Source: Deinococcales bacterium (GTDB lineage Bacteria > Deinococcota > Deinococci > Deinococcales > JAAFIG01). Taken from it: DNA of 64,000 nt. A model generated the notes under the pieces. It made no database searches. It was not told the origin of the DNA and saw nothing but the letters and a program-made list of their open reading frames with translations. The translations under genes were made by a program, and so were the position numbers. The stretch covers positions 34,297 to 98,296 of the forward strand of contig JANXTZ010000081.1 in NCBI GenBank assembly GCA_025352125.1, in the 5' to 3' direction. Of this stretch, positions 1-64,000 are shown piece by piece (position 1 is the stretch's first letter; each line of letters starts with the position of its first letter).

Positions 1-2162
1 TTCTTAAACTCGACATCGCGGCGGCGCTCGAGGTGGCGGGCGTGGTCACGGTCATTGTTGAAAGTGATATTCCAGGCGAGAACAACACGGGCGCGGTCAA
101 ACACGACGAGCCACTGCTCTCGAGTGACGTGATGTATCACGGTCAAGCCCTGGCGTGGGTGATTGCCGAGACCGACGATGCGGCTCGAGCGGGCGCAGCA
201 AGAATTAAGCCCCAGTACGAAATCCTCGAGCCAATTTTGGGCATTCAAAACGCGATCAACGCGCATTCCTATCACACCGAACCACTGAGGATTTTGCGCG
301 GCAACCCAGACACAATTCTTGAGAAAACCACGACGCTCGAGGGCGAAATTTTGGTCGGCGGGCAAGACCATTTTTACCTCGAGACGCAAGCCAGCCTGGC
401 GTTTCTGGACGAGGACGGCTGCATGGTCGTTCATTCGAGCACCCAACACCCATCTGAAACCCAGGCGGTTGTGGCGCACGTGCTCGGTTGGGCGCGTCAC
501 AAGGTCAGTGTGCAAGCCTTGCGCATGGGTGGCGGCTTCGGTGGCAAGGAGTCCCAAGCCAATCCTTACGCGGCGCTGGCGGCACTCGCGGCGCTCAAAA
601 CCAGACGCCCCGTTCGGGTGCGACTCACCAGGCACATTGACATGCAACTGACCGGAAAGCGCCACCCGATGCTGGGCAAATACCGTGTTGGCTTTGATGT
701 GACTGGCAAACTCGAGGCGTTGCACCTCGAGATTTACGCCGACGGCGGTTGGAGTTTGGACTTGTCTGAAGCCATTGTTTCCCGCGCCATGTTTCACTGC
801 GACAACGCCTATTTTATCCCGAACCTGATGGTCAAAGGTTTTGTTTGCAAGACCAACGTCACCTCGCACACGGCGTTTCGTGGTTTTGGCGGACCGCAGG
901 GCATGGTCTTGATCGAAGACATTCTGGACAGGGTCGCTCGAGCCGTGAAAAAGCGCCCTGAAGTGGTGCGAGAACTCAATTTTTACAACGAAAATTCCCT
1001 CGATCAGCACACCACGCATTACGGGCAAACAATTTCGGACGTGCGAATCGGGAACATCTGGAACACTTTAAAAACCTCGAGCGACTTTGAAAACCGTCAA
1101 CTCGAGATTGAGAATTTTAATGCCAGTCACCCGTTCTTAAAGCGCGGCATGGCGATCACGCCCGTCAAATTTGGCATCAGTTTTACCACCACTTTTCTCA
1201 ATCAAGCTGGTGCGCTCGTGCTGATTTACAGCGACGGCAGCGTGCAAGTCAACCACGGCGGCACAGAAATGGGACAAGGTTTGCACACCAAAATCGCGCA
1301 GATTGCCGCGCAAACCCTGGGTGTCAACCTCGAGCGAATCCGCGTGATGCCGACCCGCACCGACAAAGTGCCGAACACCAGCGCCACCGCCGCCTCGAGC
1401 GGCACGGATTTGAACGGTGCAGCCGTGAAAAATGCTTGCGAAATTCTGCGCGAACGACTCGAGCACGTCGCTGCCGAAATGCTCAAATGCCCGAGCGACG
1501 AGGTGCGCTTTGAAAATGGTTTTGCGGTACACCTCAAGCAAAAACTCGAGTTTGAAAAAGTGGTCATGAAAGCCTATCTTGAACGGGTTTCGCTTTTCAG
1601 TACAGGATTTTTTCGCACGCCAGAAATTCATTACGACAAGGTTGCTGGACGCGGCGAACCGTTTCGGTACTTTGCCTGGGGCGCATCCGTCAGCGAGGTC
1701 GAGATTGATTCCTTAACCGGCATGTGGCATCTGCGCCGCAGTGATATCTTGCACGATTGCGGCGACAGCATCAACCCGCTTGTGGACCGTGGACAGGTCG
1801 AGGGCGGTTTTGTTCAAGGCATGGGCTGGCTGACGATGGAAGAACTGGTTTGGGACGACACCGGCAAGCTTCGCACCTTCGCGCCGAGCACCTACAAAAT
1901 CCCGACCCTCGCCGACATCCCACTCGAGTTTCACGTTTCACTTCTGCCTCGAGCCACGGAGGAGAAAGCCGTGTTCGGTTCCAAAGCCGTGGGCGAACCA
2001 CCGCTCATGCTCGCCATCAGCGTCAGGGAAGCGTTAAAAGACGCCATCTCGAGCTTTGGGGGGCTGGAGGTCAAGTTGGCTGCCCCAAGCACGCCAGAGG
2101 CGATTTTGGACGCGATAGAAATAGTGAAAGATGCCGCTCGAGAAATTGTGATGTCTTTGTAG
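1..2162 (+). CDS. xdhB: xanthine dehydrogenase molybdopterin-binding large subunit, 5'-truncated by window edge
   Basis: ORF 33..2162 remains open to base 3 in the same frame (LKLDIAAALEVAGVV...). It has XDH/aldehyde-oxidase family signatures (GGGFGGKE, TAFRGFGGPQG, GTEMGQGLHTK, SKAVGEPP), and xdhC lies downstream. Confidence 0.9.
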   Translation, partial: LKLDIAAALEVAGVVTVIVESDIPGENNTGAVKHDEPLLSSDVMYHGQALAWVIAETDDAARAGAARIKPQYEILEPILGIQNAINAHSYHTEPLRILRGNPDTILEKTTTLEGEILVGGQDHFYLETQASLAFLDEDGCMVVHSSTQHPSETQAVVAHVLGWARHKVSVQALRMGGGFGGKESQANPYAALAALAALKTRRPVRVRLTRHIDMQLTGKRHPMLGKYRVGFDVTGKLEALHLEIYADGGWSLDLSEAIVSRAMFHCDNAYFIPNLMVKGFVCKTNVTSHTAFRGFGGPQGMVLIEDILDRVARAVKKRPEVVRELNFYNENSLDQHTTHYGQTISDVRIGNIWNTLKTSSDFENRQLEIENFNASHPFLKRGMAITPVKFGISFTTTFLNQAGALVLIYSDGSVQVNHGGTEMGQGLHTKIAQIAAQTLGVNLERIRVMPTRTDKVPNTSATAASSGTDLNGAAVKNACEILRERLEHVAAEMLKCPSDEVRFENGFAVHLKQKLEFEKVVMKAYLERVSLFSTGFFRTPEIHYDKVAGRGEPFRYFAWGASVSEVEIDSLTGMWHLRRSDILHDCGDSINPLVDRGQVEGGFVQGMGWLTMEELVWDDTGKLRTFAPSTYKIPTLADIPLEFHVSLLPRATEEKAVFGSKAVGEPPLMLAISVREALKDAISSFGGLEVKLAAPSTPEAILDAIEIVKDAAREIVMSL

Positions 2163-2191
2163 CTACAATATGATATACTTTTTAGCGAACC

Positions 2192-2454
2192 ATGTTTGAC
2201 TGGGATGACTTCAACATTGACCACATCGCAGAGCACAACGTCAGCCCAGAAGAAGCTGAACAAAAGCCGTGCTTGACCCTGATCGGATCGTAACAGAAGC
2301 TTACAACTCAAGCAACGAAAAACGCAAAGCCATTGTCGGAAAAACCCTTGATGGACGTTATTTAACAGTTGTCTTGACTGTGCGAAATGGTTTGTTTCGG
2401 GTGATTACCGCTCGAGATTCAAACGGCACAGAAAAACGTCGGTTCAGAAGGTAA
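2192..2454 (+). pseudogene. brnT: BrnT-like (DUF497) toxin, split by a -1 frameshift
   Basis: ATG at 2192 gives MFDWDDFNIDHIAEHNVSPEEAEQK, then a stop at 2291. The rest of the family sequence (VLDPDRIVTEAYNSSNEKRKAIVGKTLDGRYLTVVLTVRNGLFRVITARDSNGTEKRRF) continues in another frame from 2269. The join lies at the A-run caaaag (2261-2266); one extra A would restore a single ORF of about 87 aa. Confidence 0.7.
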
Positions 2455-2457
2455 AAC

Positions 2458-2772
2458 ATGAAAATAAAAATCATCCAAAAGCTTGATGAAATTCCGCAAG
2501 GCATGACCGAAGCTCAGGAGCACGAATTCTGGAAAACACATGGTTTTGGTGACGCGCTGTTAAAACCATCATCAGAAGTCATTGACGACTTCGAGTTGCC
2601 AGCACCCAGACAAGCAAAAGCCAGTCACCCAACCAGTTTAAGGCTGGATGAGGACACAACAAAACGTTTGAAATACCTTGCCCACTTAAAGCACTTGCCT
2701 TATCAATCATTGCTGAAAACTTTTGTTCAGGAACGTCTTTACGAAGAAGAAAAACGCATGGGCATTGTTTGA
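2458..2772 (+). CDS. brnA: BrnA-like antitoxin (ribbon-helix-helix C-terminus)
   Basis: 104-aa ORF starting 4 nt after brnT. Its C-terminal SLRLDEDTTKRLKYLAHLKHLPYQSLLKTFVQERL matches the BrnA/CopG-type antitoxin pattern. Confidence 0.75.
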   Translation: MKIKIIQKLDEIPQGMTEAQEHEFWKTHGFGDALLKPSSEVIDDFELPAPRQAKASHPTSLRLDEDTTKRLKYLAHLKHLPYQSLLKTFVQERLYEEEKRMGIV

Positions 2773-3584
2773 CCTGGCTCGAGGCGATTTGTGCATTGCA
2801 AGAACGGGGTGAACCTTGCGTCATTGTCACAGTCGCCAGTGTTCGGGGTCACAGTCCAAGGTCGGCGGGGGCGAAAATGATCGTGGCTCGAGACTCGGTT
2901 TTTGGCAGTGTGGGCGGTGGGAATCTCGAGGCGGTGGCGGTCAAAAAAGCGAGGGTCATGCTGGAAAATGGTGCTCGGGTTCCAGAAGTTCTTGAGGTGC
3001 TGCTGACCGAAAAAGCCCAAGCCGAATTTGGGGTGCAATGCTGCGGCGGAGAGGTGGTATTGTTGTTCGAGCCGATGATTCCAGAACGATCTCAAGTGGC
3101 AATTTTTGGTGTGGGTCACGTTGGACTGGCACTCACCAAAATACTGTCGGCGTTACCGCTCGAGCTTTTACTGTCCGACTCTCGAAGTGAAATGCTGGAA
3201 GCGAACCGCTTCACGGAATTCTCGGGTGTCGCCCAGATTCGCACGTTTCGCTATCCGCACCCGTCACCAGAATTTGTCATGAATGAACTGAAACCTGGCG
3301 GGTTTGTGCTGATTTTGACGCATGACCACCGCGAAGACCTGACGATTCTCGAGACGGCACTGCACCGCGCAGACCTCAAATACATTGGTCTGATTGGCTC
3401 GAGTGCAAAATGGACGCGGTTTCAAGCGCAGCTCAAAGCCAGGGGATTTACCGATGTAGACTTGGCTCGAGTGACCACACCGATTGGTGTTGCTGGCATT
3501 CGCGGCAAGCAACCCGAAGTGATCGCCATTGCGGTTGGGGCGCAACTGTTGACGATGCTCGAGTTCGTTGAAAACCTGGGTTGA
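2769..3584 (+). CDS. xdhC: xanthine dehydrogenase accessory/maturation protein XdhC
   Basis: XdhC/CoxI-family N-terminus (CVIVTVASVRGHSPRSAGAKMIV) and a Rossmann-like C-domain (VAIFGVGHVG). The TTG start overlaps the brnA stop (TTGA). Confidence 0.85.
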   Translation: MTWLEAICALQERGEPCVIVTVASVRGHSPRSAGAKMIVARDSVFGSVGGGNLEAVAVKKARVMLENGARVPEVLEVLLTEKAQAEFGVQCCGGEVVLLFEPMIPERSQVAIFGVGHVGLALTKILSALPLELLLSDSRSEMLEANRFTEFSGVAQIRTFRYPHPSPEFVMNELKPGGFVLILTHDHREDLTILETALHRADLKYIGLIGSSAKWTRFQAQLKARGFTDVDLARVTTPIGVAGIRGKQPEVIAIAVGAQLLTMLEFVENLG

Positions 3585-3771
3585 GAGGTGCTCGAGTTAC
3601 CTTTCAAATTTAAGGATGGCATCATGAACAATCAAAACCTGCCATTTTGTGAACGGCACAACCCGCATCAATCTTGGGGTTTGGATTTGCTGCCAAATGG
3701 TTTCGTGGCACGCTGACAGGATTTAAACCCCTGCCCTCGTCGCTCGAGAATACTCATTTGGAGGTTTTTTC

Positions 3772-4869: not shown

Positions 4870-4969
4870 CGCCGCAACTCGAGCCTCAACATTGAAGATT
4901 CTTTCAGCGCGATTGCACAGGCTCGAGATTCCTAGTATTCTGAGCGGGCAATATTTCAGGAGGAATGAC

Positions 4970-5818
4970 ATGAAAACGAAAGTGTTGATGGCTTTGGGTT
5001 TGGCTGCCGTGACCGCGCTGGGTTTGGGACTCTCGAGCGCCCAGGATGCGATGGCGGCTTCAAAATACGGCAATTGCACGGTCACGGGCAAAATGGGCGA
5101 TCCTGCCAAGTTCACGCCAGCCGTGGCGGGTCAACTGACGGTTGAAGTCAACTTGCCGGCTCCAGGTTGGTACAACGGCGACACCCCAGAATTGATCAAG
5201 GACGGTGCAGAATATTGTTTGGCGGCGAACATCGCGCACCGCTTGGGACTCGAGAAACTGGTCGTGAAAAACGTGGCTTGGGACGGCTTGGTGGCGGGTC
5301 AAACCAAGGATTTCGATTTGGCACTCAGCCAGATTTCGATCACCAAAGAACGCCAAAAAGTTGTGGAATTCAGCACGCCGTACTTCACTTCTGATGCTGG
5401 CGTGATGGTCAAAAAAGGCAAGAAAATTGACGAAATGAACATCAAGGGTTTGCGTTGGGGCGTGCAACAAGGCACAACGGGCGAATCGTTCGCCACCAAA
5501 ACCTTAAAAATTGCCAAGGTCAAGGTTTTCCCCGACACCCCAAGCATGTTTGCGGCATTGCAGGCGGGTCAGATTGACCTTGCCATGACCGACACCTCGA
5601 TCTTGATGGCGCAAGCCAAGCAATCAAACGGCAAGTTTGAGGTGGTTGCCCAGTACAAAACCGGTGAGGCTTACGGCGCGTTGTTCCCCAAAGGCAATGC
5701 CAACAACAAAGCCGTCAACAAAGTCATCGAAAGCTTGATTAAGGATTCAACCGTGCGCAAGCTGGTGGCAAAATACATGAGCATCGATCCAATGTCGGTC
5801 AAATACTTCCGCCCGTAA
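4970..5818 (+). CDS. amino-acid ABC transporter substrate-binding protein
   Basis: The internal ATG at 4970 is preceded by AGGAGG and encodes a signal peptide (MKTKVLMALGLAAVTALGLGLSSAQ). Family-3 solute-binding-like sequence. The upstream part of ORF 4745.. overlaps the previous gene and looks non-coding. Confidence 0.85.
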   Translation: MKTKVLMALGLAAVTALGLGLSSAQDAMAASKYGNCTVTGKMGDPAKFTPAVAGQLTVEVNLPAPGWYNGDTPELIKDGAEYCLAANIAHRLGLEKLVVKNVAWDGLVAGQTKDFDLALSQISITKERQKVVEFSTPYFTSDAGVMVKKGKKIDEMNIKGLRWGVQQGTTGESFATKTLKIAKVKVFPDTPSMFAALQAGQIDLAMTDTSILMAQAKQSNGKFEVVAQYKTGEAYGALFPKGNANNKAVNKVIESLIKDSTVRKLVAKYMSIDPMSVKYFRP

Positions 5819-19428: not shown

Positions 19429-20876
19429 TCCCTCGTGATGACGCCAGCCCGCTCGAGCGGATGCGGCGCATGAGACACGAGTGCGGGCGCTTCGCCGCTC
19501 GGAAACATTTTTCCAGGGTTGCTCAACTCGAGCGGGTCAATGGAAAGCCGCAAGCGTTTCATGGCGTCAAGATCGCTGCTGGAAAACATGATCGGCATGT
19601 GCTCGCGTTTTTCGACGCCGACGCCGTGCTCGCCCGTGATACTGCCGCCAAGTTTGACGCACAACCCGAGGATTTCACCCGCCAGATGCTCGGCTTTTTC
19701 GAGCGCTCCAGGTTCGCGCCCATCAAACAAAATCAGTGGATGCAAATTGCCGTCACCCGCATGAAAAACGTTCGCCACCCGCAGCCCCGCCACGCCCGAA
19801 AGACGCTCAATTTCTTTGAGCGCCAGCCCAAGCTTGCCGCGAGGCACGACGCCATCTTGAACAATGTAATCTGGGCTTAAACGCCCGACGGCGCTGAAGG
19901 CACTCTTGCGCCCCTTCCAGATGGTCAGACGCTCGAGTTCGGATTGCGCGATTCGTACCTCATACGCCCCAGAAGCCCGAATCACCCGCTCGAGTTCTAA
20001 AAATTCGGCTTCGATGGCGCGATCTTCACCCTCGAGTTCGACAATCAACAATGCCGCCGCATCTTTGGGATACCCCGCGTGAACGGCTGCCTCTGCCGCC
20101 TGAATCGCCAAGGCGTCCATGATTTCCATTGCCCCAGGCAGCAACCCACTGGACACCACGCTGGCAACCGCCTCGCCCGCCGCCTCGAGCGAATGGTATG
20201 CCGCCAGCACCGTGCGGTAGCGCTGCGGTTTTGGCAGCAAACGCAGTGTCACCTCTAAAGCAATGCCGAACAAACCTTCACTTCCCACGAACAACCCGTG
20301 CAAATCTGCGCCAACACTTTCCAAACTCGAGCCGCCCAACGTCAGCACTTCACCGTCGGGCAAGAGCACCTTTAAACCGAGTACGTGGTTGCTGGTCATG
20401 CCGTACTTCAGACAATGCGCCCCGCCAGAATTAAACGCCACATTGCCGCCAATCGTGCAAATCTGCTGACTGGAAGGGTCGGGCGCGTAATACAACCCGA
20501 ACGGTGCGGCAGCCGTCGATACCGCCAAGTTTGTCACGCCAGGTTGCACGACCGCCACGCGCTCGAGCGGATCAAGTTTGAGGATTTTGTTTAACTTGTT
20601 TAAGGCAATCACCACGCCATCCGCCACGGGCAAACTGCCGCCCGATAAGCTTGTTCCACTGCCCCTTGCCACAAACGGAACACGGTGCTTGTGACAGATT
20701 TTGACCACCTCGATCACCTCGAGTTCGGTCTCTGGCATGACCACCGCCAATGCCCTGGCTTTAAAACTCGTCAACGCATCGGATTCATACGCTGCCAGTT
20801 GCGCGGCTTTGACCATGACTCGAGCCTCGCCCAGCACACGGCGTAAATCGGTCAGGATGGTGGCAGGTTCAGTCAT
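19425..20876 (-). CDS. glcD: glycolate oxidase subunit GlcD (FAD-linked oxidase)
   Basis: PCMH-type FAD-binding domain ([11 protein letters not shown]) plus an FAD-oxidase C-terminal domain (HAGDGNLHP). Confidence 0.9.
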
Positions 20877-23067: not shown

Positions 23068-23832
23068 TTAATTGAATGTAGATCGCTCTGTGTCGTTGGG
23101 TTTTAATATTCCTGATTTGCTGTTCAGTTGAAGTAATTTATTCCAATTGATCTCATCATCTTTACAGTAATCAATCAGGAATTCTCGAGTAAAACGAGTG
23201 TACAATTTTGTCCGCTCCTGTTCATATTCCTCGTTATGGCGCTTGGCTTCAAAACCAACAGGTTCGATCAAATCAATGTACAGTTGTTCACTGCCAGACA
23301 AAAAATGCCAAAAGGCTTGTCCGGTTAATTTCAGGTATTCGCCATTGTTCACAGGGGCTGTTGCACCATAGCAAATTCCTAAAACAGGCTGTACCTCACC
23401 AATATTTTTTGCTTGTTTGAGTACCCTGACAGCGGTTTTAAAGTTCGTTTTTAGGGCTTTATACTGACTCGAATTGCCCCAGTTTGGACCAGATTTGATG
23501 CTGACCACGTATCTTACGCCATCCCGAGCAAATTCGAGGTCTGCTCCCGTCACACCAGATTTCAAACCATCTGAGGTTTGTTGTAACACGAAAATAGCTA
23601 AAGCCTCAAGAAAATCACCAAAATGTTTTTCTTCTGAACTCGACAAAAAAGCGTCCAGCAAACTTGAAACCAGTGTGGTTGGAGCGAGATTTTTAGCACG
23701 AAACAAGTACGGATTTTTACGCTTTAACAAACCGATCAATTTTAGTTTTTTGAGTCCCTCGAGTCGCGCATTGTGAAAAGTACTGATATGGGCATTGACG
23801 TAGAGTGCCACCTGTTCGAGATTAACTGCCAT
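23068..23832 (-). CDS. putative type II restriction endonuclease (specificity unknown)
   Basis: Co-oriented with the DNA methyltransferase, whose 3' end its start overlaps by 11 nt (ATG at 23832, preceded by GAGGAA). PD-(D/E)xK-like arrangement E...DLEF...VVSIK. AT-rich relative to its flanks. Family not assignable by eye. Confidence 0.6.
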   Translation of the reverse strand: MAVNLEQVALYVNAHISTFHNARLEGLKKLKLIGLLKRKNPYLFRAKNLAPTTLVSSLLDAFLSSSEEKHFGDFLEALAIFVLQQTSDGLKSGVTGADLEFARDGVRYVVSIKSGPNWGNSSQYKALKTNFKTAVRVLKQAKNIGEVQPVLGICYGATAPVNNGEYLKLTGQAFWHFLSGSEQLYIDLIEPVGFEAKRHNEEYEQERTKLYTRFTREFLIDYCKDDEINWNKLLQLNSKSGILKPNDTERSTFN

Positions 23833-24685
23833 GAATTTCCTCAAATAAAGGTGAAATATCGGTTTTTTCTGCATTTAGGCGTTGTTGTGCGACTTCAATG
23901 TACTCAAGTTTAAGTTCTGTACCAACATAATATCGTCCGAGGCGATGAGCGGCGATAGCGGTTGTGCCACTGCCCATGAATGGGTCCAAAACAACATCCC
24001 CTGGTGAACTAAAGAGTTTGATGAACCATTCTGGTAAACCAATGGGAAATGCGGCGCTGTGATTACGATTACCGCATTCAGTAGCCAGATGGATGACATT
24101 GGTCGGATAAACAAGATCGCGTCCAACCCAGTTTGAAATGTTTTTACCAAAACCACTGCCAACTTTGGATTCGTCGCGGCGTTTGTCAGTTTTGCTCAAA
24201 TTTTTTAAACGGCTCTCTGCCCAATCACCAACTGGAACACGGACAGCATCTTGGTTCATTTTAAACTGACGCTCTTTTGTAAAATGTAAACAACGCTCCC
24301 ACGCATCACGAAATCTATTTGACCATTTCCCTGGAAACGAATTACGCTTATGCCACATGTATTCTTCGGTCCAAAGCCAGCCTTGTTTTTTTAATTCGAG
24401 AATCAACTCGAGTACATAAGTGTGTCGTTCTCCAGCGACAACTCGTTCTTTAATATTTAAAACAAACGAACCTGTCGGTTTGAGAACACGATGTAATTCA
24501 GCCGCAATAGGCATAAACCAGGCTGCATACTCGTCGGGATGAACTCCACCGTAAGTATTTTTACGCTGATCGGCATAGGGTGGTGACGTAACGATCAAAT
24601 CTATGCTGGAATCTGGTAAATGCTGTAAAGTAGTGCAGGCATCGCCTTGAAAAATCTGGTTGTGCCAAGTGATATCAGAAGTCAT
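23822..24685 (-). CDS. beta-class N4-cytosine/N6-adenine DNA methyltransferase
   Basis: Catalytic motif IV TSPPY near the N-terminus and AdoMet motif I DPFMGSGTT near the C-terminus. This is the beta-class order of the N6_N4_Mtase family; SPPY is more typical of N4C enzymes. Confidence 0.9.
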   Translation of the reverse strand: MTSDITWHNQIFQGDACTTLQHLPDSSIDLIVTSPPYADQRKNTYGGVHPDEYAAWFMPIAAELHRVLKPTGSFVLNIKERVVAGERHTYVLELILELKKQGWLWTEEYMWHKRNSFPGKWSNRFRDAWERCLHFTKERQFKMNQDAVRVPVGDWAESRLKNLSKTDKRRDESKVGSGFGKNISNWVGRDLVYPTNVIHLATECGNRNHSAAFPIGLPEWFIKLFSSPGDVVLDPFMGSGTTAIAAHRLGRYYVGTELKLEYIEVAQQRLNAEKTDISPLFEEIHGS

Positions 24686-27885: not shown

Positions 27886-28041
27886 GTGACCAACCTGCCG
27901 AGTGAAGATTTAATCCAGCAAACTGCGTATTACATTTGGTTGCGAAACGGACGCCCCGAAGACCGCGAACTCGAGCATTGGAATGAGGCATTTGTTAGTT
28001 TGTGTGTCAGTTCTGGACGAATCCCAAACACTATAAAATAG
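27886..28041 (+). CDS. small DUF2934-like protein (51 aa)
   Basis: Not in the ORF track because it is shorter than 60 aa. GTG start. The sequence AYYIWLRNGRPEDRELEHWNEA matches the DUF2934 pattern AYxxWxxxGRPxGxxxxxWxxAE. Confidence 0.5.
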   Translation: MTNLPSEDLIQQTAYYIWLRNGRPEDRELEHWNEAFVSLCVSSGRIPNTIK

Positions 28042-28057
28042 CGAATGCAAGTTCATT

Positions 28058-28579
28058 GTGAACATAAAGCAGAATGGGGTGGTTATGCTACCGCTAGACG
28101 ATGATCGATGGCAGCAATTGACAACGTTTTTTAAAGAACCGAAAGACATTCCAAAAATTCTTGAAGAATGGTTAGCATCTGTTGGGTTCGACCAAAACGA
28201 AGCCAAGATTTACTATGACATTTTGTTCGATATTTTTTTACATCAAACGACAATCACAAATGTAGCATTTGCCATCGTACCATGGCTCTTACATGTTTGC
28301 AGAACGCGTGATACAAGATTGCGAGCTACGTACTTGACGGATATTGCTCTGGTAGAAGCGAACAGACTCACCCACGGTGTCTACTACAACCGTGAAGGCA
28401 CTGAAAAATACCCAAATTGGTTAATGTCTGACTACATGCAGGCAATCGCAGAAGCTTGTACTTTTGTAGATGATGTTATTGAAGCAGAACTCGATGAAGA
28501 TAGAAAACAACTCTTGGTTGCCATGAAACCTGCATTGTTTGGAAATCCTGAGTTGGCATGGTCACAGTGGTATCCATAG
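28058..28579 (+). CDS. hypothetical protein (orphan, AT-rich)
   Basis: 173-aa ORF in AT-rich DNA that contains no CTCGAG at all. No domain recognised. Confidence 0.5.
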   Translation: MNIKQNGVVMLPLDDDRWQQLTTFFKEPKDIPKILEEWLASVGFDQNEAKIYYDILFDIFLHQTTITNVAFAIVPWLLHVCRTRDTRLRATYLTDIALVEANRLTHGVYYNREGTEKYPNWLMSDYMQAIAEACTFVDDVIEAELDEDRKQLLVAMKPALFGNPELAWSQWYP

Positions 28580-28647
28580 AACTCGAAAATAAAAGATTTC
28601 AGATTAAACTTTGGAATTCACCAAGTTTTAAACATCTGCATACCCGC

Positions 28648-29868
28648 TCAATCCAAAAACAATGACACAACCTCACCAAACGGGAAACCCTCAATCGCCA
28701 AACCTCCAGGCGTGACCACCCATAACACGGGCAGTTTGGGAGGCTCGAGTGGAAAATCACCAAAACCGTCAGTCAAGTACACGATCACACCGTGCTCGAG
28801 TTCCACCAGGTCAGGTTTGATGGCTTCAAAAAATGGTCTGAAATCCGTGCCGCCACCGCCTTGGGGCGCGGGAATGTCGCCGTCCACCTCGAGCGCGAAT
28901 GGTCCGTAGGCGGTTGCGTCGGCGTAGTAGAGGGTGCAGCACACGTGCGGGTACGCCCGAAGGATGCCACGCACCTCTGAAAGTAACGCTGTGATTTGCG
29001 GTTCGTCGATTGAACCGCTGGTGTCCACGCACAAGAACACCTGCAAGCTCATGCCCGACAGACTCTCGAGGTAGTACCCGCGTCCGATCATGCGGCGGTC
29101 AAATTCTTCAAAATCGGTGGGCGTGTGCGACAGGTAACGCCACAAGGTGCTGCGCCAGTCGAGGCGTGAAGGCTCGAGGCTGCCGAACTCGCGGGTTAAC
29201 CCTGCCGGAAGCTTGCCCTGATTTGAACCCCTGGCGACGCTGGCGGCTTGCGCCATCGCCTTGCGCCAGTGCGCCTCGAGCGCCTTGCGTTGTTCCTGGG
29301 AAAGTTGCCCGCCAGGACTGCCCGCTTTGGCATCCCCTTCTTTTGAACCATCCCTGCCCTCACTCGCAGGCTCGAGCAAATCTGGATGCTCGAGTTGATG
29401 CTTTTCCTGGTCTTCGGCTTGCTTGGCTAAAATAGCGTAAGCCTCTTCGGCGCTGTGATGCTCGAGATCGGTGTCGCGGATCGTGTTTTCTGGAAGTTCA
29501 AAACCGTTCTGCCAGAGCACACCATTGACAACAATATCGGCGGCAATGTTCCAGCCTTTGGGGTTGCGGGTGCTGCGCCTTGAAACGTGAAGCAGCGCGG
29601 CGTGCAAAACTTCATGCAACATCACGGCATCAATTTGAATTGGTGACAGGCTCGAGATGAATGCAGGGTTGTAAATCACGTCGCGTCCGTCGGTGGCGGC
29701 GGTGGGCAGGTCAAAACTGGCTTTGAACCCCGCGTACAACGCCAGGGTCGCAAAAAATGGGGATCGCATTCGCAGGCGCAGCAACGAACCGCTGACCAAT
29801 TTTTCAGTTTTCGCAACAAGCTCGAGCTGCATTTGGGGCGTTAAAGCTGGAGATTCTGGACTGCTCAT
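28648..29868 (-). CDS. predicted zinc-metallopeptidase + von Willebrand factor A domain protein (DUF2201/COG3864-like)
   Basis: HExxH motif (MLHEVLHAALLH) in the N-terminal half and the MIDAS motif DTSGS in the C-terminal VWA-like half. The start ATG at 29868 overlaps the upstream stop as ATGA. Confidence 0.8.
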   Translation of the reverse strand: MSSPESPALTPQMQLELVAKTEKLVSGSLLRLRMRSPFFATLALYAGFKASFDLPTAATDGRDVIYNPAFISSLSPIQIDAVMLHEVLHAALLHVSRRSTRNPKGWNIAADIVVNGVLWQNGFELPENTIRDTDLEHHSAEEAYAILAKQAEDQEKHQLEHPDLLEPASEGRDGSKEGDAKAGSPGGQLSQEQRKALEAHWRKAMAQAASVARGSNQGKLPAGLTREFGSLEPSRLDWRSTLWRYLSHTPTDFEEFDRRMIGRGYYLESLSGMSLQVFLCVDTSGSIDEPQITALLSEVRGILRAYPHVCCTLYYADATAYGPFALEVDGDIPAPQGGGGTDFRPFFEAIKPDLVELEHGVIVYLTDGFGDFPLEPPKLPVLWVVTPGGLAIEGFPFGEVVSLFLD

Positions 29869-32633
29869 GGTTGAACCTTGAGTGCGGCGGAACGTACCAG
29901 AATGTTGGCATCTTGACACAAAATTTCCCGAGCTTCACTGGGCAAATTGCTGTTCAGGCACAAGGCGATTCTTTCGGCGGGATGCGCGGCGAACAGATGG
30001 CGGTGTTTGCGAAGCTCCAAGACTGGCACCAGTTCACTCTCGAGCGCCAGAACGCGGTTGAAGACTTGCATGGAGCGCAAACCTTGACGAACACAGGCGC
30101 GGCGCAACTGGTGGCGCGTCTCAAATTCCAGGTTTTGATTTTCCAGCGCCGTCAAACGCACGCTCGAGTCTGGATGCGCAATCAATTGCAACAACACTTC
30201 GTTGCTGGTGCTCGAGTTTCGCGCCAGCGCCCGCAGCACGTCCAGATCGGTGTCCCCAGCCAGTTGTTCAAGCACCGTGCGTTCGAGTTTTGGATTGCTG
30301 GCGGCAGCCTCACGCAGACGCCAGTGTTCGCGCCAACCGAGTTGCTCGAGCAGTTTGGTCGTGACGTTCGGGTGTTTGGCAATCCAGGCATGAGCCGTGG
30401 ATACGGTGGCAAGTTCCTCGAGTTCTGCGGCGTTTAAAGTCGGGTCGAGGCTTTGAAGGCGCTCAAATTTCTTTGCCACCTGATGCGGCAAGTTTGGATG
30501 CTCGAGGGCAAGTTCGCGGATTTCAGCTTCGGAGTCACAGCACAACAATTGCAGTGCCTCGAGCGGTGGGTTCTGACGCCTCGCAACAGCAAGACGAACG
30601 CTGCCAGTCTCGTCGCAAGCCAATTTGCACAGCATGGTGCGGCTCGAGTTTGGATTGCTCGCCGCCGAGGTCCGCACGTCCGAATCACCGTCCAAGCACA
30701 ACCGCGCCAACGCCATTCCAGAGGTGAAAGGATGCGCTGCAACCTCTTGACGAATCCGCCACTCGGCGTCCCTTGCGAGTTGTGAAAGAATCAAGTTTGG
30801 AATCTCGAGCACAGGTTTTTCTTGCCAGAACCGCACCGTGATTTCGTGCATCTCACCAGACTCGAGTTCAACCTTTTGACGCGTTTTTGAACTTGTCACC
30901 AACCGTTCAACCTTAAGTTTGGCGTGTGTGTTGGCTGATTCTTCAAACCAACCACGGTAAAACCCGAGCAGATTTTGAGCACTGAGTGAATCGGTTTGGC
31001 TTGGTTCGGCGAGATGCAATGCCGCTCGAGCTGCCATGCGCACGTCATTGTCGCTGTCCTCGAGGAAGGATTTTAAGATCGTGAGCTTGGTGTGTTGGTG
31101 CTGCGCCACGGCTTGGCGCACCGCCCAGTGATCGTCTTGGGCGAGCAACTCGAGCGAGGCGGTAGAGATTCGAGGATTCTGAGCCGCACTTTTACGAATC
31201 TCGAATTGTTCGTCTCCACAGAACTTCTCGAGCAAATCTGCCGCAAGGTTCGGGTGCTGTGCAACTGCCTGGCGCACGTCCGAATCCGAATCGAGCGCCA
31301 GCATCTCGAGTTGCGCCGCATTTAAATTTGGATTGTGCGCCGCCGCCACGCGGTCGTGCCAGTTCTCACCCGTCAGATACGGCTCCAAAACCTCATTTGT
31401 CAAGTTTGGATGCTTTAACGCGAGTTGCCGCGACCAGCCGCCGCGTTTGCAAAATTTTTGCAGCACCTCGAGCGGCACGGCTTGATCGCCATGCTCAACT
31501 TTCTCGAGCAAAGCATTCCAGGTTGCATCAGAATTTGGATTGGACTTCACCGCGAGCCGCACCTCTTCGATCTCGTCACCGAGTAAAAATTCCAGGGTCA
31601 ACGTTGAAGTGCTCCAATGCTGCGCAACCACCATGCGCACATCTTTGTCCTCGTCGGCTGCGAGTTGCTCGAGCAACCTGGCATCAAGGGTTGAATTAAA
31701 TGCCAGCGCCTGCCGCACCCGCCAATCTGAATGCGTGGTCAGTGATGCAAGTCTTGCCAGATCAACACTTGGATTGCGAGCCAAGCAAGTCAAAGCTTGC
31801 ACGCCAGCCGTCTCGAGCAATTCCAAATCCAAACTGTTCAAAATTTGAATATTTTCAACCCGCAACAATCTCTCAAGTGTCACTGTATCAATGTTCGGGT
31901 TGCCTCGAGCCGCAGCACGAACTTCATCGTCATCATCAAAGCACAAATGAAATATCAAACCCTGATCCAAACTGCTTTTGGCGAGCATCAAACGAAGTTG
32001 CGTGTCATCATCCAAACTCAAACCCTCGAGCAACCAATCTGGTACCAAACCGAGCGCCACCGCGTCCTTTAAGTGCTCCGCATCATGCTCGAGCGACGGC
32101 AGCAAGTCACGCAAGGTCTGGATTGCACTGCCAAACGCCAGCTTGTTCGGATGGTTGACATGCCCACGCGCCAGAAATGCCAGCATTGAGAATTCTGTAC
32201 TGCCAGGATGGCTTGAATCGGGAATTTCAAACTCGAGCTTCAAGCGTTGCTCCAAAGCCTCGAGCATTTCTGAGGTCAATTGCGGATTTTGCAGCGCCCT
32301 CACCTTCGCATCGTGATCGCCCCAAGTGAACACCCAATCCAACCAAGCGAGCGGCACTTGAGCAGACCTCACAAAACTCAACCTGGCAAACGCAGGTAAT
32401 TCCGCCAAAAAATTCGGATTCTCGAGAATCAAAAAATCGAGCACCGAATTCCCCAGCACCGCATCCGCATCACGCACCGCAAGCCGCCACAAGACCGTTG
32501 AGGGCGTGTTCGGATTGCCCGCCACGGCATGTTTAAGCGCCTGCGAACCACTCGAAGCCAGACGTTCCAAACGAATTGGCGTCGTTGTCGGGTCGGATGC
32601 CTCGAGCAAAAATTGTGTGGATTGATCGGTCAT
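29865..32633 (-). CDS. 922-aa leucine-rich-repeat-variant (LRV)/HEAT-like solenoid protein
   Basis: More than 20 repeats of about 26 aa of the form D-x-D-x-x-VR-x-AVA-x-NPN-x-x-x-x-x-L-x-x-LA, e.g. DSDSDVRQAVAQHPNLAADLLEKFCG / DEQFEIRKSAAQNPRISTASLELLAQ / DDHWAVRQAVAQHQHTKLTILKSFLE. Confidence 0.8.
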   Translation of the reverse strand: MTDQSTQFLLEASDPTTTPIRLERLASSGSQALKHAVAGNPNTPSTVLWRLAVRDADAVLGNSVLDFLILENPNFLAELPAFARLSFVRSAQVPLAWLDWVFTWGDHDAKVRALQNPQLTSEMLEALEQRLKLEFEIPDSSHPGSTEFSMLAFLARGHVNHPNKLAFGSAIQTLRDLLPSLEHDAEHLKDAVALGLVPDWLLEGLSLDDDTQLRLMLAKSSLDQGLIFHLCFDDDDEVRAAARGNPNIDTVTLERLLRVENIQILNSLDLELLETAGVQALTCLARNPSVDLARLASLTTHSDWRVRQALAFNSTLDARLLEQLAADEDKDVRMVVAQHWSTSTLTLEFLLGDEIEEVRLAVKSNPNSDATWNALLEKVEHGDQAVPLEVLQKFCKRGGWSRQLALKHPNLTNEVLEPYLTGENWHDRVAAAHNPNLNAAQLEMLALDSDSDVRQAVAQHPNLAADLLEKFCGDEQFEIRKSAAQNPRISTASLELLAQDDHWAVRQAVAQHQHTKLTILKSFLEDSDNDVRMAARAALHLAEPSQTDSLSAQNLLGFYRGWFEESANTHAKLKVERLVTSSKTRQKVELESGEMHEITVRFWQEKPVLEIPNLILSQLARDAEWRIRQEVAAHPFTSGMALARLCLDGDSDVRTSAASNPNSSRTMLCKLACDETGSVRLAVARRQNPPLEALQLLCCDSEAEIRELALEHPNLPHQVAKKFERLQSLDPTLNAAELEELATVSTAHAWIAKHPNVTTKLLEQLGWREHWRLREAAASNPKLERTVLEQLAGDTDLDVLRALARNSSTSNEVLLQLIAHPDSSVRLTALENQNLEFETRHQLRRACVRQGLRSMQVFNRVLALESELVPVLELRKHRHLFAAHPAERIALCLNSNLPSEAREILCQDANILVRSAALKVQP

Positions 32634-40950: not shown

Positions 40951-43395
40951 TCAACTCGAGGCTTTTCGCTTCACCCCGCGTACCGCTTCGGCGGTCAGTG
41001 GATTTTCTGCCCACGAATGCTTGGGGTAACGCCGCTTGAGTTCTTGACGCACACCAGGGTAAGTGTTCTGCCAGAAACTTTGTAAGTCCCCAGTCACTTG
41101 CACGGGTCGGTAGGCGGGTGAAAGCAAGTGCATCAAAACCTTAACGCGTCCGTCATTCACGCTGGGCGTACTGATCCAACCAAACACCTCTTGCAAGCGC
41201 ACGGCAAGCACGGGCGCACTGCCGTCAGTGGCGTACTCGAGTTTGATTCTCGAGCCGCTGGGAACGTCGAGTTTGCTTGGTGCGAGTCGCTCGAGTTGCT
41301 GGTTTTGCTGCCAGGTCAGGATCGAATGTAGGGCATTCTCGAGATTGATTTTTTTGAAATCCTCCCGACTGCGCACGCCGCTCAAGAACGGTGCGAGCCA
41401 CAACTCTAGCGTCTCGAGCAGTGCAGTACCGCTGACATCGGGCAGGTCGTGTCCCCAAACCTTTAAGCTCGAGATTCTGGCTTGCCATTGCAGTGCGCCC
41501 TCAGTCCAGTTCAAAAGTTTTAAGCCCTCGAGCCTCACGGCTTTGCACAAGGCTTGAACTCGAGTTTCGATTGGCACGTCTTTTAACGCCCGAGTCTCGA
41601 GCATGATCTCTCCCACTTTTTGCTCGCGCTGCGCCAGCAAAACGCCATTTCTCGAGTCCCAAGCCACAACGTCGCGCTCGATTGGCGTTAAGTCTCTGGT
41701 GTCAAGCGATGCCGCCAAGTACACGCGACCCTCGTCTGTGCCTGCGTCCATGTGCGCGACGGCAAGCCAAGTCTCACCCGATAGCAGGTCGTGCTGGGGC
41801 AATTTGATGCCGCGCCCGTTTGCCAGTTTGTAACGTTCTCGACTGGCGTCGCGGCGCTGGGCGATGCGTTCGGGATAGGCGAGCGCGATCAGTCGTCCGA
41901 CGGTGTGGGCGGGAACCTGACGGCTCGAGGCATTTGGCAATTTGGCGCGGTACGATGCCGCCAGTTGGTCAAGGCGTTTTAAGACCGTCATGTCTGCACC
42001 GCTCGAGCCTTGTTTTGCACGCCAAGCATTCAGGGCATTCAAACGCAATTCGGCATCCACACCAGAATCTCTGGGCAGTGGGTCGCGTTCCTCGAGCAGC
42101 GCGGCGAGGTCGCTTGCCAGGTTGCCAAATCCCAAACGGTGACCGTTGATCAGCAAATGTGCCAGCCTTGGGTGCGTGCCCAGGGCGTGCATGGCTCGCC
42201 CGTGCGCGGTGATGGCACCCTGCGCCGTTGCGTTCAAATCCTCGAGCAATGTCTTGGCTTGCATCAGTGCGCCAATGGGCGGGGCTGTCAGCCATTGCAA
42301 ATCTCCCGAACCCCAGGCGGCAACCTCGAGCGCCAGGGGGGCAAGGTCAGCCTCGAGGATTTCGGGGTTGCGTTGCCGGTTCAGGCTGGCGTGTATGGCA
42401 GCCGTCCAGAGGCGGTAGCAAATTCCTGGCGCGACCCGTCCAGCCCGTCCGGCGCGTTGGTCGGCACTGTCAACAGTGATTCGGCTTGTCTCGAGGCGGG
42501 TAAAACCCGTGCCCGCATCAAACTTTGATCCTCGAGCCAGACCGCTGTCAATCACCACGCGCACGCCCTCGATGGTCAGGCTGGTTTCGGCAATGTTGGT
42601 GGCAAGCACCACGCGACGTTCATGCCCTGGCAAAATCGCAGCCTGTTGCGCCTCAAGCGGCAAATCGCCGTACAGTGGACGCACACCAACACCCTCGAGG
42701 TCACTCAAACCATCCTCGATGCGTTTAATTTCTGATGCTCCAGGCAAGAACACGAGAATGTCACCTGCGTGCGCCTCGAGCGCAAGACGAATTGTTCTGA
42801 GCACCGATCTTAAAACATCATCTGACTCTCGAGATTCGTACTTAATCTCGACTGGAAAAGCCCGTCCAACACTTGAGATCACGGGTGCGTTCAAAAGACC
42901 CGAGAGTTGTTCGGCGTCAAGCGTGGCACTCATGATGAGCACCCGCAAATCCTCGCGCAAAACAGTTTGGACCTCCCGCACCAATGCCAGCGCGGTATCG
43001 GCGTGCAAGCTGCGTTCGTGAAATTCGTCAAAGATCACCAAACCCACATCCTCGAGCGTCGGGTCAGTTTGCACGCGGCGCGTCAAAATGCCTTCAGTCA
43101 CCACCTCGAGCCGTGTGATGCCGCTGGTTTTTCGCTCGAGTCGCACCTGATAACCCACCGTCTGCCCCACCATTTGACCCAGTTGTGCCGCCATTCTCGC
43201 CGCCACCGCGCGAGCCGCCAGACGACGCGGTTGCAGCATGATGATCTTTTGATTCGCCAACCAAGATTCTTTCAGCAACTCGAGCGGCACAACCGTGCTT
43301 TTGCCCGCACCTGGGGGCGCGGTCAGAATCACAATGCGGTTCGTCTCGAGCTTGGCACGCAATTCGGGCATGATCTCGAGCACGGGAAGGGACAC
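40951..43395 (-). CDS. hrpB: ATP-dependent RNA helicase HrpB
   Basis: Walker A APPGAGKST, DEAH-type box FDEFHERS, HA2/OB and HrpB C-terminal regions. The GTG start at 43395 gives MSLPVLEIMPEL, analogous to E. coli MSSLPV. Confidence 0.9.
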   Translation of the reverse strand: MSLPVLEIMPELRAKLETNRIVILTAPPGAGKSTVVPLELLKESWLANQKIIMLQPRRLAARAVAARMAAQLGQMVGQTVGYQVRLERKTSGITRLEVVTEGILTRRVQTDPTLEDVGLVIFDEFHERSLHADTALALVREVQTVLREDLRVLIMSATLDAEQLSGLLNAPVISSVGRAFPVEIKYESRESDDVLRSVLRTIRLALEAHAGDILVFLPGASEIKRIEDGLSDLEGVGVRPLYGDLPLEAQQAAILPGHERRVVLATNIAETSLTIEGVRVVIDSGLARGSKFDAGTGFTRLETSRITVDSADQRAGRAGRVAPGICYRLWTAAIHASLNRQRNPEILEADLAPLALEVAAWGSGDLQWLTAPPIGALMQAKTLLEDLNATAQGAITAHGRAMHALGTHPRLAHLLINGHRLGFGNLASDLAALLEERDPLPRDSGVDAELRLNALNAWRAKQGSSGADMTVLKRLDQLAASYRAKLPNASSRQVPAHTVGRLIALAYPERIAQRRDASRERYKLANGRGIKLPQHDLLSGETWLAVAHMDAGTDEGRVYLAASLDTRDLTPIERDVVAWDSRNGVLLAQREQKVGEIMLETRALKDVPIETRVQALCKAVRLEGLKLLNWTEGALQWQARISSLKVWGHDLPDVSGTALLETLELWLAPFLSGVRSREDFKKINLENALHSILTWQQNQQLERLAPSKLDVPSGSRIKLEYATDGSAPVLAVRLQEVFGWISTPSVNDGRVKVLMHLLSPAYRPVQVTGDLQSFWQNTYPGVRQELKRRYPKHSWAENPLTAEAVRGVKRKASS

Positions 43396-43715
43396 GGCGC
43401 GATTGTATGACAGTTGATGCGCAATCCCAAATCTCGGGTTTTTAACAAAATTCAGGGACTCGTGCCACACGAACCCGAGTGCATAATCTTGACGAATAAC
43501 GAACACCGTGCCATTCTTTGAAAATCAGCGCCTGCAAAAGGCGCGTTTTTTGTTGTTTGCTTGTGAATTTTCAATCTTACCAATGATTTTCAAATGGTAT
43601 TTCTTCCCAACTTCGAGCCTTATTGCCCGGCAATCAATGTCCCTCGAAGGTCAATTCATCCTGCTTGATCGTCAAAAGTTGACTCAGGCGGGTCAAACCT
43701 GTCAAACTACACATT

Positions 43716-60510: not shown

Positions 60511-60530
60511 CTCGAGTTGTCCTTTTTGCC

Positions 60531-60574
60531 TGTGGATAAGCTGTGGACAAGTGCTGTGGATAACCTGTGGATAA
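60531..60574 (-). promoter_or_regulatory. cluster of four co-oriented DnaA boxes
   Basis: tgtggataa (60531), tgtggacaa (60542), tgtggataa (60555) and tgtggataa (60566). These are the reverse complement of TTATCCACA: three perfect, one with a single mismatch. Confidence 0.7.
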
Positions 60575-60575
60575 C

Positions 60576-60610
60576 AAAAAAAGCATCTCGAGTATTGAGG
60601 CTCGAGATGC
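60576..60610 (-). terminator. intrinsic terminator of bamA (also closes the convergent lysE-like gene)
   Basis: 10-bp perfect stem gcatctcgag / ctcgagatgc with an 8-nt loop. A7 on the plus strand gives U7 on the bamA transcript. Confidence 0.85.
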
Positions 60611-60638
60611 CAATTGCTATTTGCTATGCGCTATTTGC

Positions 60639-63287: not shown

Positions 63288-63689
63288 TGATTGACATCCT
63301 CCAACGTGTCGCGCCACAAAATCAATTCTGTGGTTCGCGTTGCTCGAGCGTCCCCGAGCGGGTACCATAAAACCATAAATACTGAGCGCATAAAACATTT
63401 TGTGAAATTGCTTGGATTCATCAAGTTCTTTACCGGTGAGATGTTTCCAAGTTTCCATTCACGGGTTCAGGCGAGAAGAATCAAAATCAATCCACTGGAA
63501 TTCCTTTAAAAGTGTCGCCCATTCCCGTATTGGAGCGGTGAAGCACCCGTGAGAACCCTGATTTGAAACTTAAGCAACCCTTAACCCTGTGCTGCTCGAG
63601 TTTTAGCAGTTTGATGTTAACTGGTTTTGTGATACAAAAGCGACTTTTGGCAATACAAGACGCCCTGCGCCTGGGCTAAGATGTGACCC

Positions 63690-64000
63690 ATGAGTGAAAT
63701 TGCCACCAGAATTGCCTCGAGTTTGCAGGCGGCTCGAGCCACCACAGACTTTGAACCCGAAATTGCCATCATCTTGGGATCGGGACTTGGACCGCTCGCC
63801 GAAGACATTGACACCAAAATGGGCGCGACCATCGCTTACGCCGACCTGCCAGGTTTTCCAGTGTCCACCGCGCCAGGACACGCCGGAAAAGCCGTGCTCG
63901 GAACGCTCGAGAATAAGCGCGTGATCGCCTTTCAGGGGCGGGTGCACCTGTACGAGGGTTACAACGCCAAAGAGGTCGTGATGCCTGTTTCCTTGGCACA
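63690..64000 (+). CDS. punA: purine nucleoside phosphorylase (PunA type), 3'-truncated by window edge
   Basis: My own translation from ATG 63690 gives MSEIATRIASSLQAARATTDFEPEIAIILGSGLGPLAEDIDTKMGATIAYADLPGFPVSTAPGHAGKAVLGTLENKRVIAFQGRVHLYEGY, the PNP family-2 signature. The ORF is open to the window end, so it is absent from the ORF track. Confidence 0.85.
   Translation, partial: MSEIATRIASSLQAARATTDFEPEIAIILGSGLGPLAEDIDTKMGATIAYADLPGFPVSTAPGHAGKAVLGTLENKRVIAFQGRVHLYEGYNAKEVVMPVSLA

Follow-up and report, generated by a model that had tools for sequence, protein, structure and literature searches.

A hyper-iterated CTCGAG palindrome with short-range interference between its sites in a deep clade of Deinococcales

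What could maintain one six-base palindrome at several hundred copies in a stretch of bacterial DNA where chance would supply about 16? The question is raised by 64,000 bp of contig JANXTZ010000081.1 (GenBank assembly GCA_025352125.1, positions 34,297 to 98,296) from a Deinococcales bacterium, referred to here as the window, in which a sequence-only reading had pointed to CTCGAG as a hyper-iterated palindrome (HIP) resembling the HIP1 element of cyanobacteria. HIP1 has gone unexplained for about 30 years, and to our knowledge research on it has been confined to cyanobacteria. Exact counting gave 395 copies of CTCGAG in the window (52.9% GC), equal to 6.2/kb and 3.7% of all bases, forming a field that covers positions 1..64000 with starts 162 bp apart on average (minimum 13 bp, maximum 774 bp). 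The early estimate of several hundred copies was thus borne out, and the hand counts behind it (23 in 1-3000, 29 in 16621-19440 and 26 in 29865-32633) proved exact. The mechanism, which that reading had left open, is narrowed without being settled by three further properties of the sites, namely their conservation, their clade-wide persistence and a short-range interference between them.

A bare hexamer abundant across one deep clade

The excess of CTCGAG holds under each low-order model applied to the window. Markov expectations were 17.4 (order 0), 10.8 (order 1) and 24.3 (order 2) copies, and dinucleotide-preserving shuffles contained 11.07 +/- 3.54 copies with a maximum of 20, corresponding to an enrichment of ~36-fold (z ~108) and to observed/expected ratios of 16-37 across models. 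CTCGAG ranks first among all hexamers, the runner-up palindromic hexamer reaches 46 copies, and once the motif is masked the highest enrichment of any other hexamer is 3.3-fold, so that comparable enrichment of unrelated words, an objection anticipated in the sequence-only reading, does not arise. A HIP in the sense of Elhai 2015 is an outlier word with a low-order enrichment of at least ~15-fold that is dispersed outside longer repeats; CTCGAG is such a word, occurring in coding sequence in any phase as well as in non-coding DNA. The same reading had suggested a maximal-order Markov model as a check, with a ratio near 1 to count against hyper-iteration. The observed/expected ratio under that model is 1.18, which formally falls on the refuting side, but the test is uninformative for so dominant a word because the 5-mers CTCGA and TCGAG are almost wholly derived from the motif itself, making the expectation circular. 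The hexamer also accounts for 395 of the 615 TCGA occurrences, and, given the TCGA core, the preceding C and the following G are coupled with an odds ratio of ~11 calculated from the window counts.

The bases flanking the hexamer had been described as freely varying, and they very nearly are. The strongest biases fall on -1, where G makes up 39%, on +1, where C makes up 40%, and on -3, where A makes up 42%; across positions -6 to +6 no base exceeds this last value. Extension to a palindromic 8-mer was rejected, as GCTCGAGC occurs 53 times, within the prediction from flank frequencies. Because the flanks are near-free and a palindromic extension is absent, the repeat unit is the bare hexamer. 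A dispersed repeat or miniature inverted-repeat transposable element of the REP or Correia kind was likewise rejected, since conservation does not extend past the core (at most 42%), as was a Chi-type recombination hotspot, since CTCGAG is its own reverse complement and hence has no orientation. No tandem arrays involving CTCGAG were found in the window, and tRNA and Rfam scans of it returned no RNA genes. The one-off variants that had been taken for nascent or decayed sites are present, but they are not enriched as a class, ranging from 0.2 to 2.0 times expectation, with CTTGAG/CTCAAG at 37 copies (1.2 times) and TTCGAG/CTCGAA at 60 (1.66 times). Among leucine-glutamate (Leu-Glu) pairs not spelled CTCGAG, however, CTT is over-used ~3-fold, which is compatible with decayed sites.

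The sites belong to real and widely recurring sequence. Contigs of two separate sequencing runs in the Logan assemblies are 100% identical to stretches of the window, namely 32736-48847 (L081) and 1820-7034 (L217) from SRR20627842 and 1-14869 (L216) from SRR23617199, the last extending 6.2 kb upstream of the window at 6.7 sites/kb; this answers the concern about an artefact. Gene content, including Deinococcus-type BamA and BshC among others, places the window in the Deinococcota. A search of genome contigs with the HrpB helicase identified one close relative, a Deinococcales metagenome-assembled genome (MAG) with 87% identical HrpB and 170 CTCGAG in 22.5 kb (L001), together with 79 distant homologues, mostly from Bacteroidota and Pseudomonadota, whose loci were re-used as composition controls and as HrpB outgroups. 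The median density in these 79 unrelated loci is 0.09/kb.

Homologues of BamA then provided a graded identity series, from whose members the clade loci were fetched; assemblies of seven other species in all, drawn from NCBI, ENA, JGI and Logan, contributed loci of up to 23 kb. CTCGAG is the top hexamer in every fetched clade BamA locus. With declining BamA identity to the window, the loci show 5.4 sites/kb (L082; 92% identity, 51.5% GC), 7.6 (L083; 83%, 51.9% GC), 4.6 (L084; 77%, 45.9% GC), 5.0 (L086; 55%, 60.0% GC), 5.4 (L088; 50%, 54.4% GC) and 4.8 (L089; 48%, 47.1% GC). The seven relatives, members of a deep Deinococcales clade, have 4.6-7.6 sites/kb over a GC content of 46-60%. In plasmid segments of D. 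radiodurans, D. deserti, D. psychrotolerans and Deinococcus sp. KNUC1210, CTCGAG is not enriched (0-0.17/kb, at or below expectation), and in pTT27 of T. thermophilus it is enriched 1.7-fold. Because the other Deinococcota sequences compared show low or mild values, hyper-iteration is a property of one deep branch and not of the phylum.

Elsewhere in the Thermaceae a mild enrichment was observed in Allomeiothermus silvanus (pMESIL01, positions 1-50000; L215; 3.6-fold) and in 6 kb of a Meiothermus MAG (L005; 5.9-fold), in both of which CTCGAG tops the palindromes by observed/expected ratio. Either codon usage or a weaker version of the trait could account for this.

Imprint on proteins, retention and spacing of the sites

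Is the force that multiplies CTCGAG directed at DNA or at protein? Density is 6.1/kb in coding and 6.9/kb in non-coding DNA of the window, and 5.9 and 6.9/kb, respectively, when pooled over the clade. As the sequence-only reading had stated, copies lie between genes, within genes of either strand and in a terminator, although for the latter the evidence is a single terminator-like hairpin 3' of BamA (60582..60611, minus strand), which carries CTCGAG in each arm (GGCATCTCGAGCCTCAATACTCGAGATGCT) and is followed by a T-run. The 344 coding sites divide into 204 in phase 0, 55 in phase 1 and 85 in phase 2. The codon phases that had been quoted for three plus-strand sites are all correct: CTC-GAG (Leu-Glu, phase 0) at 27..32 in the gene for the xanthine dehydrogenase XdhB, xxC-TCG-AGx (phase 2) at 119..124, and GCT-CGA-GCG (Ala-Arg-Ala, phase 1) at 184..189. 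Where the encoded peptide permits the hexamer synonymously, it is usually or often present, filling 73% of the Leu-Glu pairs in the window, 50% of the x-Ser-[Ser/Arg] contexts and 41% of the [SPTA]-Arg-[VADEG] contexts. CTCGAG spells 57-86% of Leu-Glu pairs in every clade member, whereas codon usage would give 5-14%, and it spells 3-6% in classic Deinococcus. Similar coding and non-coding densities, the use of three phases and a Leu-Glu occupancy far above the codon-usage prediction together uphold the original inference that the driver acts on DNA.

The driver has nonetheless left its mark on the proteome. Phase 0, which encodes Leu-Glu, accounts for 59% of the coding sites, and Leu-Glu is the most over-represented dipeptide in the window (281 versus 124 expected, 2.27-fold), while the reversed dipeptide Glu-Leu, at 123, is not enriched. 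The effect is seen most closely in the HrpB helicase gene (40951..43506, minus strand), which contains 28 sites (11/kb) and encodes 21 Leu-Glu pairs; its orthologue in the related MAG encodes 24, and the 79 outgroup homologues, equal in leucine and glutamate content, average 8.8. Of the 19 Leu-Glu positions that CTCGAG encodes in the window HrpB, at least 11 are occupied in the outgroups by LA, FE, IE, LQ, LK, LH or KE, and because these pairs stand in the outgroups, the sites there were made by amino-acid changes. A change next to a residue that already matched completed the site. A further dense gene encodes an LRV/HEAT-repeat protein (29865..32633, minus strand; 26 sites, 9.4/kb). Sites have therefore been made in place by point substitution, synonymously where the protein allows and otherwise by changing amino acids, and in non-coding DNA as well; the expectation that both kinds of substitution would be involved is thereby supported.

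Once made, the sites are kept. In syntenic alignments with the window, 84% of sites but only 47% of control hexamers are conserved in L001, 80% versus 45% in L082, 81% versus 27% in L083 and 60% versus 23% in L084; nucleotide identity is ~86% for the first two comparisons and 79% for the third. Conservation above that of other words is the criterion applied by Xu et al. 2018, and CTCGAG shows it. Two sites in BamA are common to six of the seven species, including those at ~50% protein identity, and given the high occupancy this sharing may partly be convergence at conserved Leu-Glu positions. On the two youngest branches, polarised with L083 as outgroup, there were 8 losses and 0-1 gains, a balance that fits purifying retention of old sites with transient recent losses. 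In five of the seven polarised single-base losses the change is C>T and falls on the inner CpG cytosine, which is a weak hint, from a small sample, of cytosine methylation to 5-methylcytosine (m5C). A within-species comparison (L086 versus L087) offered 12 single-nucleotide polymorphisms, too small a number to add much. The sites are kept by a selection-like force, and this force recognises the exact 6-bp duplex.

A new result concerns how the sites are spaced. Gaps shorter than 13 bp between sites do not occur in the window, where 28 are expected, and across eight clade loci there are 4 against ~80 expected. None of the 11 Leu-Glu pairs lying within 12 bp of a site in the window is spelled CTCGAG. 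An example is found in the GlcD gene (19989..20000, minus strand), where of two adjacent Leu-Glu pairs, read on the plus strand, one is CTCGAG and the next, 6 bp off, is TTAGAA. When synonymous potential sites in all phases were pooled over seven clade loci, occupancy was 7% (6/86) with the nearest site at 6-12 bp (Fisher p = 7e-28 against the >40 bp class), 41% at 13-20 bp (p = 9e-7), 55% at 21-40 bp (p = 1e-3) and 64-68% beyond 40 bp, the reference class. The test is conservative because regional heterogeneity in density would bias against such a trend. The favoring force is thus switched off by a neighbor at 12 bp or less and weakened out to ~40 bp.

It follows from this interference that what is favored is evenness of coverage, with a site every 100-200 bp or so, and not sheer number. 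Interference of this kind is expected from a steric footprint combined with diminishing returns, and it is not expected from a mutation bias acting independently at each site. That sites are no more frequent outside coding DNA than inside it likewise argues for a set-point over an open-ended ratchet.

Known systems and candidate explanations

Which known system does this most resemble? As described in two accounts (PMC4390886, PMC5861425), HIP1 (GCGATCGC) is also a short GC-rich palindrome, hyper-abundant throughout a lineage by an unresolved mechanism, present in coding and non-coding DNA outside longer repeats and conserved between genomes above background. CTCGAG is nevertheless a different word, of 6 bp and without the GATC core, in a different phylum, and HIP1 proper was rejected, since the word is CTCGAG and CGATCG has no copy in the window. 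Set against the HIP1 figures in those accounts, CTCGAG is 2-20 times denser (~6,200/Mb versus 300-2,700/Mb), while its observed/expected ratio of 16-37 compares with 55-228 (Elhai) or 15-300 (Xu). The periodicity given there for HIP1 is 10-90 kb, to be read against a window of 64 kb and related loci of at most 23 kb. A cognate methyltransferase is known for HIP1, whereas one for CTCGAG is predicted by analogy, and short-range interference is seen for CTCGAG but was not reported for HIP1 in the parts of the literature examined. Also similar are the alternate HIPs described by Elhai (PMC4390886), GGCGCC in Calothrix PCC 7103, GCsGC in Cyanothece PCC 7822 and rCCGGy in Oscillatoria PCC 10802, which like CTCGAG are five- or six-base restriction-type palindromes enriched more than 15-fold; these are sporadic, confined to single genomes and considered possible by-products, whereas CTCGAG is clade-wide, down to 48% BamA identity and over 46-60% GC. 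Elhai's survey appears to be limited to cyanobacteria (PMC4390886). Nothing in the full-text literature searched describes CTCGAG hyper-iteration or any HIP in Deinococcota, in agreement with the initial impression that no CTCGAG equivalent had been described. CTCGAG therefore qualifies as a HIP by enrichment, dispersion and conservation and shares the clade-wide persistence of HIP1, and the proposal of a HIP-type palindrome outside cyanobacteria is supported.

Other systems resemble it in part. The uptake signal sequences (USS) of Pasteurellaceae and the DNA uptake sequences (DUS) of Neisseriaceae are lineage-specific over-represented words found in genes and terminators at fairly even spacing, which alter the encoded peptides and occur in naturally competent hosts, as is the host group of CTCGAG. 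They are, however, asymmetric words of 9-12 bp at ~1/kb, with demonstrated uptake and inverted pairs in terminators, and CTCGAG is not a word of this description, being a 6-bp palindrome at 6.2/kb that lacks an extended consensus. GATC with Dam/MutH and CCWGG with Dcm/Vsr are methylated palindromes whose frequency is shaped by repair, and the density of GATC in E. coli (~4/kb) is near the 6/kb of CTCGAG. But GATC is a 4-mer near its chance frequency, CCWGG is enriched less than 2-fold and CTWGG is depleted, whereas CTCGAG is enriched 36-fold and its T-variants are undepleted. Restriction-site avoidance is followed by other palindromes of the same genome, and CTCGAG, the XhoI word, departs from it in the opposite direction by more than 10-fold.

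We propose, with a probability of about one half, that CTCGAG is a lineage-wide mark of the HIP type, for which a force favors even coverage and which is read by a dimeric, site-specific protein, probably in connection with methylation. By analogy with HIP1 and the alternate HIPs, the reader of CTCGAG would most likely comprise an orphan DNA methyltransferase and the factor that detects its modification. Resident DNA would thereby be labelled for some DNA transaction, such as telling strands or self apart in mismatch repair, recombination or natural transformation, and alleles with a well-spaced site would be preferentially kept. Several reports lend this substance. All alternate HIPs of cyanobacteria are accompanied by a methyltransferase that targets the same word (PMC4390886), and the conservation of HIP1 has been interpreted as selection (PMC5861425); methylated HIP1 raises transformation more than 100-fold (bioRxiv 10.1101/2024.09.10.611283), and HIP1 abundance correlates with DNA-uptake genes (bioRxiv 10.64898/2026.06.24.733823). 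A more ambitious statement, that CTCGAG constitutes a second, phylogenetically independent HIP system with a spacing rule, a genome-wide coverage code read by a predicted dimeric protein that might serve methyl-directed strand or self recognition in repair, recombination or transformation, is put forward more tentatively, as a possibility that we would not yet favor.

A number of observations weigh against the proposed mark. In ~200 kb of clade DNA we saw no gene for a CTCGAG methyltransferase, an XhoI-type nuclease, Vsr or a MutH-like protein, and a motif scan for DNA methyltransferases over ~185 kb returned only one enzyme, encoded at 23068-24685 of the window, which pairs with an EcoO109I-family nuclease. 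Methylation of CTCGAG is put forward by analogy. The ~40 bp range of interference is far below the ~1 kb of methyl-directed mismatch repair in Elhai's model, and the G at -1 and C at +1, at only 39-40%, do not reproduce the 'G-meC' ratchet of that model. The two youngest branches show no ongoing creation of CTCGAG. Moreover, conservation and saturation cannot tell true selection from a strong conversion bias.

Could the sites spread without benefit to the cell? In a molecular drive of the uptake-sequence type, the competence machinery would prefer DNA with CTCGAG and recombination would spread the alleles that bear it. Drive of this sort, as seen with USS, is the case already known in which a DNA motif has been powerful enough to remodel proteins, and the effect of CTCGAG on the proteome resembles it. 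The sites are also more evenly spaced than random, as they would be if a second site inside a receptor footprint added nothing, and the hairpin at 60582..60611 with CTCGAG in each arm recalls the inverted pairs of DUS. Deinococcus is naturally transformable (PMC7314969, PMC11784314), and HIP1 is now argued to act in transformation (bioRxiv 10.1101/2024.09.10.611283). Yet known uptake sequences are longer (9-12 bp), non-palindromic and some six times sparser (~1/kb versus 6/kb); fragments above 1 kb already hold several CTCGAG sites, so that the marginal gain from each additional one would be small; among the terminator-like hairpins found in the window only one contains the motif; and no uptake specificity of Deinococcus was reported in the literature found. 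We consider drive of this type unlikely, though deserving of serious attention.

Slightly less credible still is a functionless by-product of a biased repair ratchet, in which m5C-linked very-short-patch repair, or the methyl-directed mismatch-repair ratchet of Elhai, converts near-cognate words to CTCGAG. Elhai's model (PMC4390886) predicts saturation at high density, which is a kind of interference; the favored flanks are G at -1 and C at +1; the C>T losses at the inner CpG cytosine (5/7), although few, hint at m5C; and an m5C CTCGAG methyltransferase occurs in Halorubrum (PMC8112702). By-product HIPs are, however, sporadic and not distributed by clade according to Elhai (PMC4390886), whereas CTCGAG spans a deep clade and a 14-point shift in GC. 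Vsr-type enrichment was rejected on the window counts, in which the T-containing products of deamination that such a process should deplete stand at 1.2 (CTTGAG/CTCAAG) and 1.66 (TTCGAG/CTCGAA) times expectation. The Dcm/Vsr effect in E. coli is less than 2-fold, as against 36-fold for CTCGAG. A hard exclusion at 12 bp with a gradient to 40 bp also mismatches a repair range of ~1 kb, and density is not higher in non-coding DNA even though constraint is weaker there.

A further explanation is an abundant nucleoid-associated or chromosome-organising protein whose binding sites are selected for compaction or architecture, methylation not being involved. A palindromic hexamer fits a dimeric binder, exclusion below 13 bp with graded interference to ~40 bp recalls the steric footprint of a protein that also bends DNA or oligomerises, sites are similarly dense inside and outside coding DNA, and Xu et al. 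suggested a nucleoid role for HIP1 (PMC5861425). A candidate protein is not known, however, and known nucleoid proteins accept degenerate sites whereas the one-off variants of CTCGAG are not enriched. We regard this explanation as improbable.

A cause at the protein level, assembly artefacts and mobile repeats are excluded. That codon usage, a dipeptide preference or selection on Leu-Glu yields CTCGAG, as the 59% of coding sites in the Leu-Glu phase might suggest, has a very small probability in view of the equal non-coding density, the three phases encoding unrelated peptides, the occupancy of 57-86% where codon usage gives 5-14%, the 123 Glu-Leu against 281 Leu-Glu, and a dependence of occupancy on the distance to the nearest site that it does not predict. 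The idea that the sites are artefacts of assembly or synthesis, or that they came with a dispersed repeat or mobile element, has no point in its favor and is the least credible of all, given contigs of two separate runs identical to the window, recurrence of the trait in seven other species across assemblies from NCBI, ENA, JGI and Logan, near-random flanks, the absence of tandem arrays that involve the motif, and sites at orthologous positions in diverged genomes.

Other loci and words, and what the sites may mean

Three regions of low GC at third codon positions (GC3) interrupt the field of sites. The island at 23068..24685 (minus strand; GC3 0.35-0.39) has 3 sites in 1.6 kb and holds a restriction-modification pair, an EcoO109I-family restriction endonuclease (PF14511, E = 1e-70) and a DNA methyltransferase (PF01555) of the N4/N6 kind that bears an SPPY motif. 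The recognition word of EcoO109I, which we take to be RGGNCCY, occurs once in the window where 78 copies are expected. The longest site-free gap (27976..28743; 774 bp between site starts) contains a low-GC3 open reading frame at 28058-28579 for which no family match was found, and an open reading frame for a CopG-type antitoxin (PF12441) at 2458-2772, between xanthine dehydrogenase genes, has a GC3 of 0.42 and no CTCGAG. All three regions look like recently acquired, site-poor DNA, and the island serves as an internal control, that is, acquired-looking DNA still unfilled by sites. Two small intergenic tandem arrays were also observed, one at 57824-57884 (16 bp x 3.8 copies, AACATCACGGCGCTCG), which overlaps the beginning of an MFS transporter gene, and one at 60530-60574 (11 bp x 3.9 copies, CTGTGGATAAG) adjoining the BamA terminator.

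Many other words are scarce in the window. GGCC occurs once (at 53873) against ~310 expected, and its near-absence extends to L001, L082, L083, L084 and L089, while L086 has 89 copies and L088 has 58; because it is not clade-wide, GGCC avoidance is younger and more variable than the CTCGAG trait. Against Markov expectation the missing palindromes (observed/expected) are GGCGCC (0/47), GCGCGC (0/26), CCGCGG (0/22), CGATCG (0/20), TCGCGA (0/20) and GCATGC (1/17), and against base composition GRGCYC (1/78), CCSGG (12/166), TTCGAA (2/30) and CTAG (14/248) are depleted. This breadth of restriction avoidance is unusual. Depletion also affects non-palindromic words, with CACACA and its complement at 3 versus 45 expected and GGAG and CTCC at 64 and 80 versus ~280 each, while AAAA, TTTT, CAAA and TTTG runs are over-represented ~3-fold.

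Upstream of its HrpB orthologue, L001 has another helicase gene resembling HrpB (~900-3300), with collinear BLAST matches of 68-69% to the window HrpB and no counterpart at the corresponding position of the window. Secondary BLAST matches between L001 and the HrpB region are partly due to this gene; the rest are off-register, in a region without tandem repeats. Among viral contigs from IMG/VR, five of high GC (L210, L193, L123, L100 and L107) carry CTCGAG at 3-5.5/kb, 10-20 times expectation, figures that are biased upward since the contigs were chosen for clustered sites (three within 80 bp). In one of them (L210) 83% of Leu-Glu pairs are CTCGAG against 11% from codon usage, and all five are without short-range exclusion. 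A clade-like tetranucleotide signature was absent from the viral contigs among the matches listed, which are mostly of high GC.

For the long-standing problem posed by HIP1, what is new here is an independent system of the HIP type, an interference rule and a proteome footprint. A different word in heterotrophic relatives of a naturally transformable genus makes it possible to ask, by comparing the two phyla, which genes accompany hyper-iteration in both, and the clade that carries it is possibly an easier experimental host. As CTCGAG is the XhoI site, its methylation can be checked by a simple digest. The interference rule and the Leu-Glu excess are quantitative constraints that any mechanism must reproduce. 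For the genomes of this clade, CTCGAG density is a strong barcode for metagenome binning, and caution is called for with codon usage, dipeptide statistics and selection tests such as dN/dS. If the proposed mark is real, its convergence with cyanobacterial HIP1 would point to a general, hitherto unrecognised class of bacterial genome marking, and it would constitute a marking system among relatives of bacteria that resist radiation and are naturally competent.

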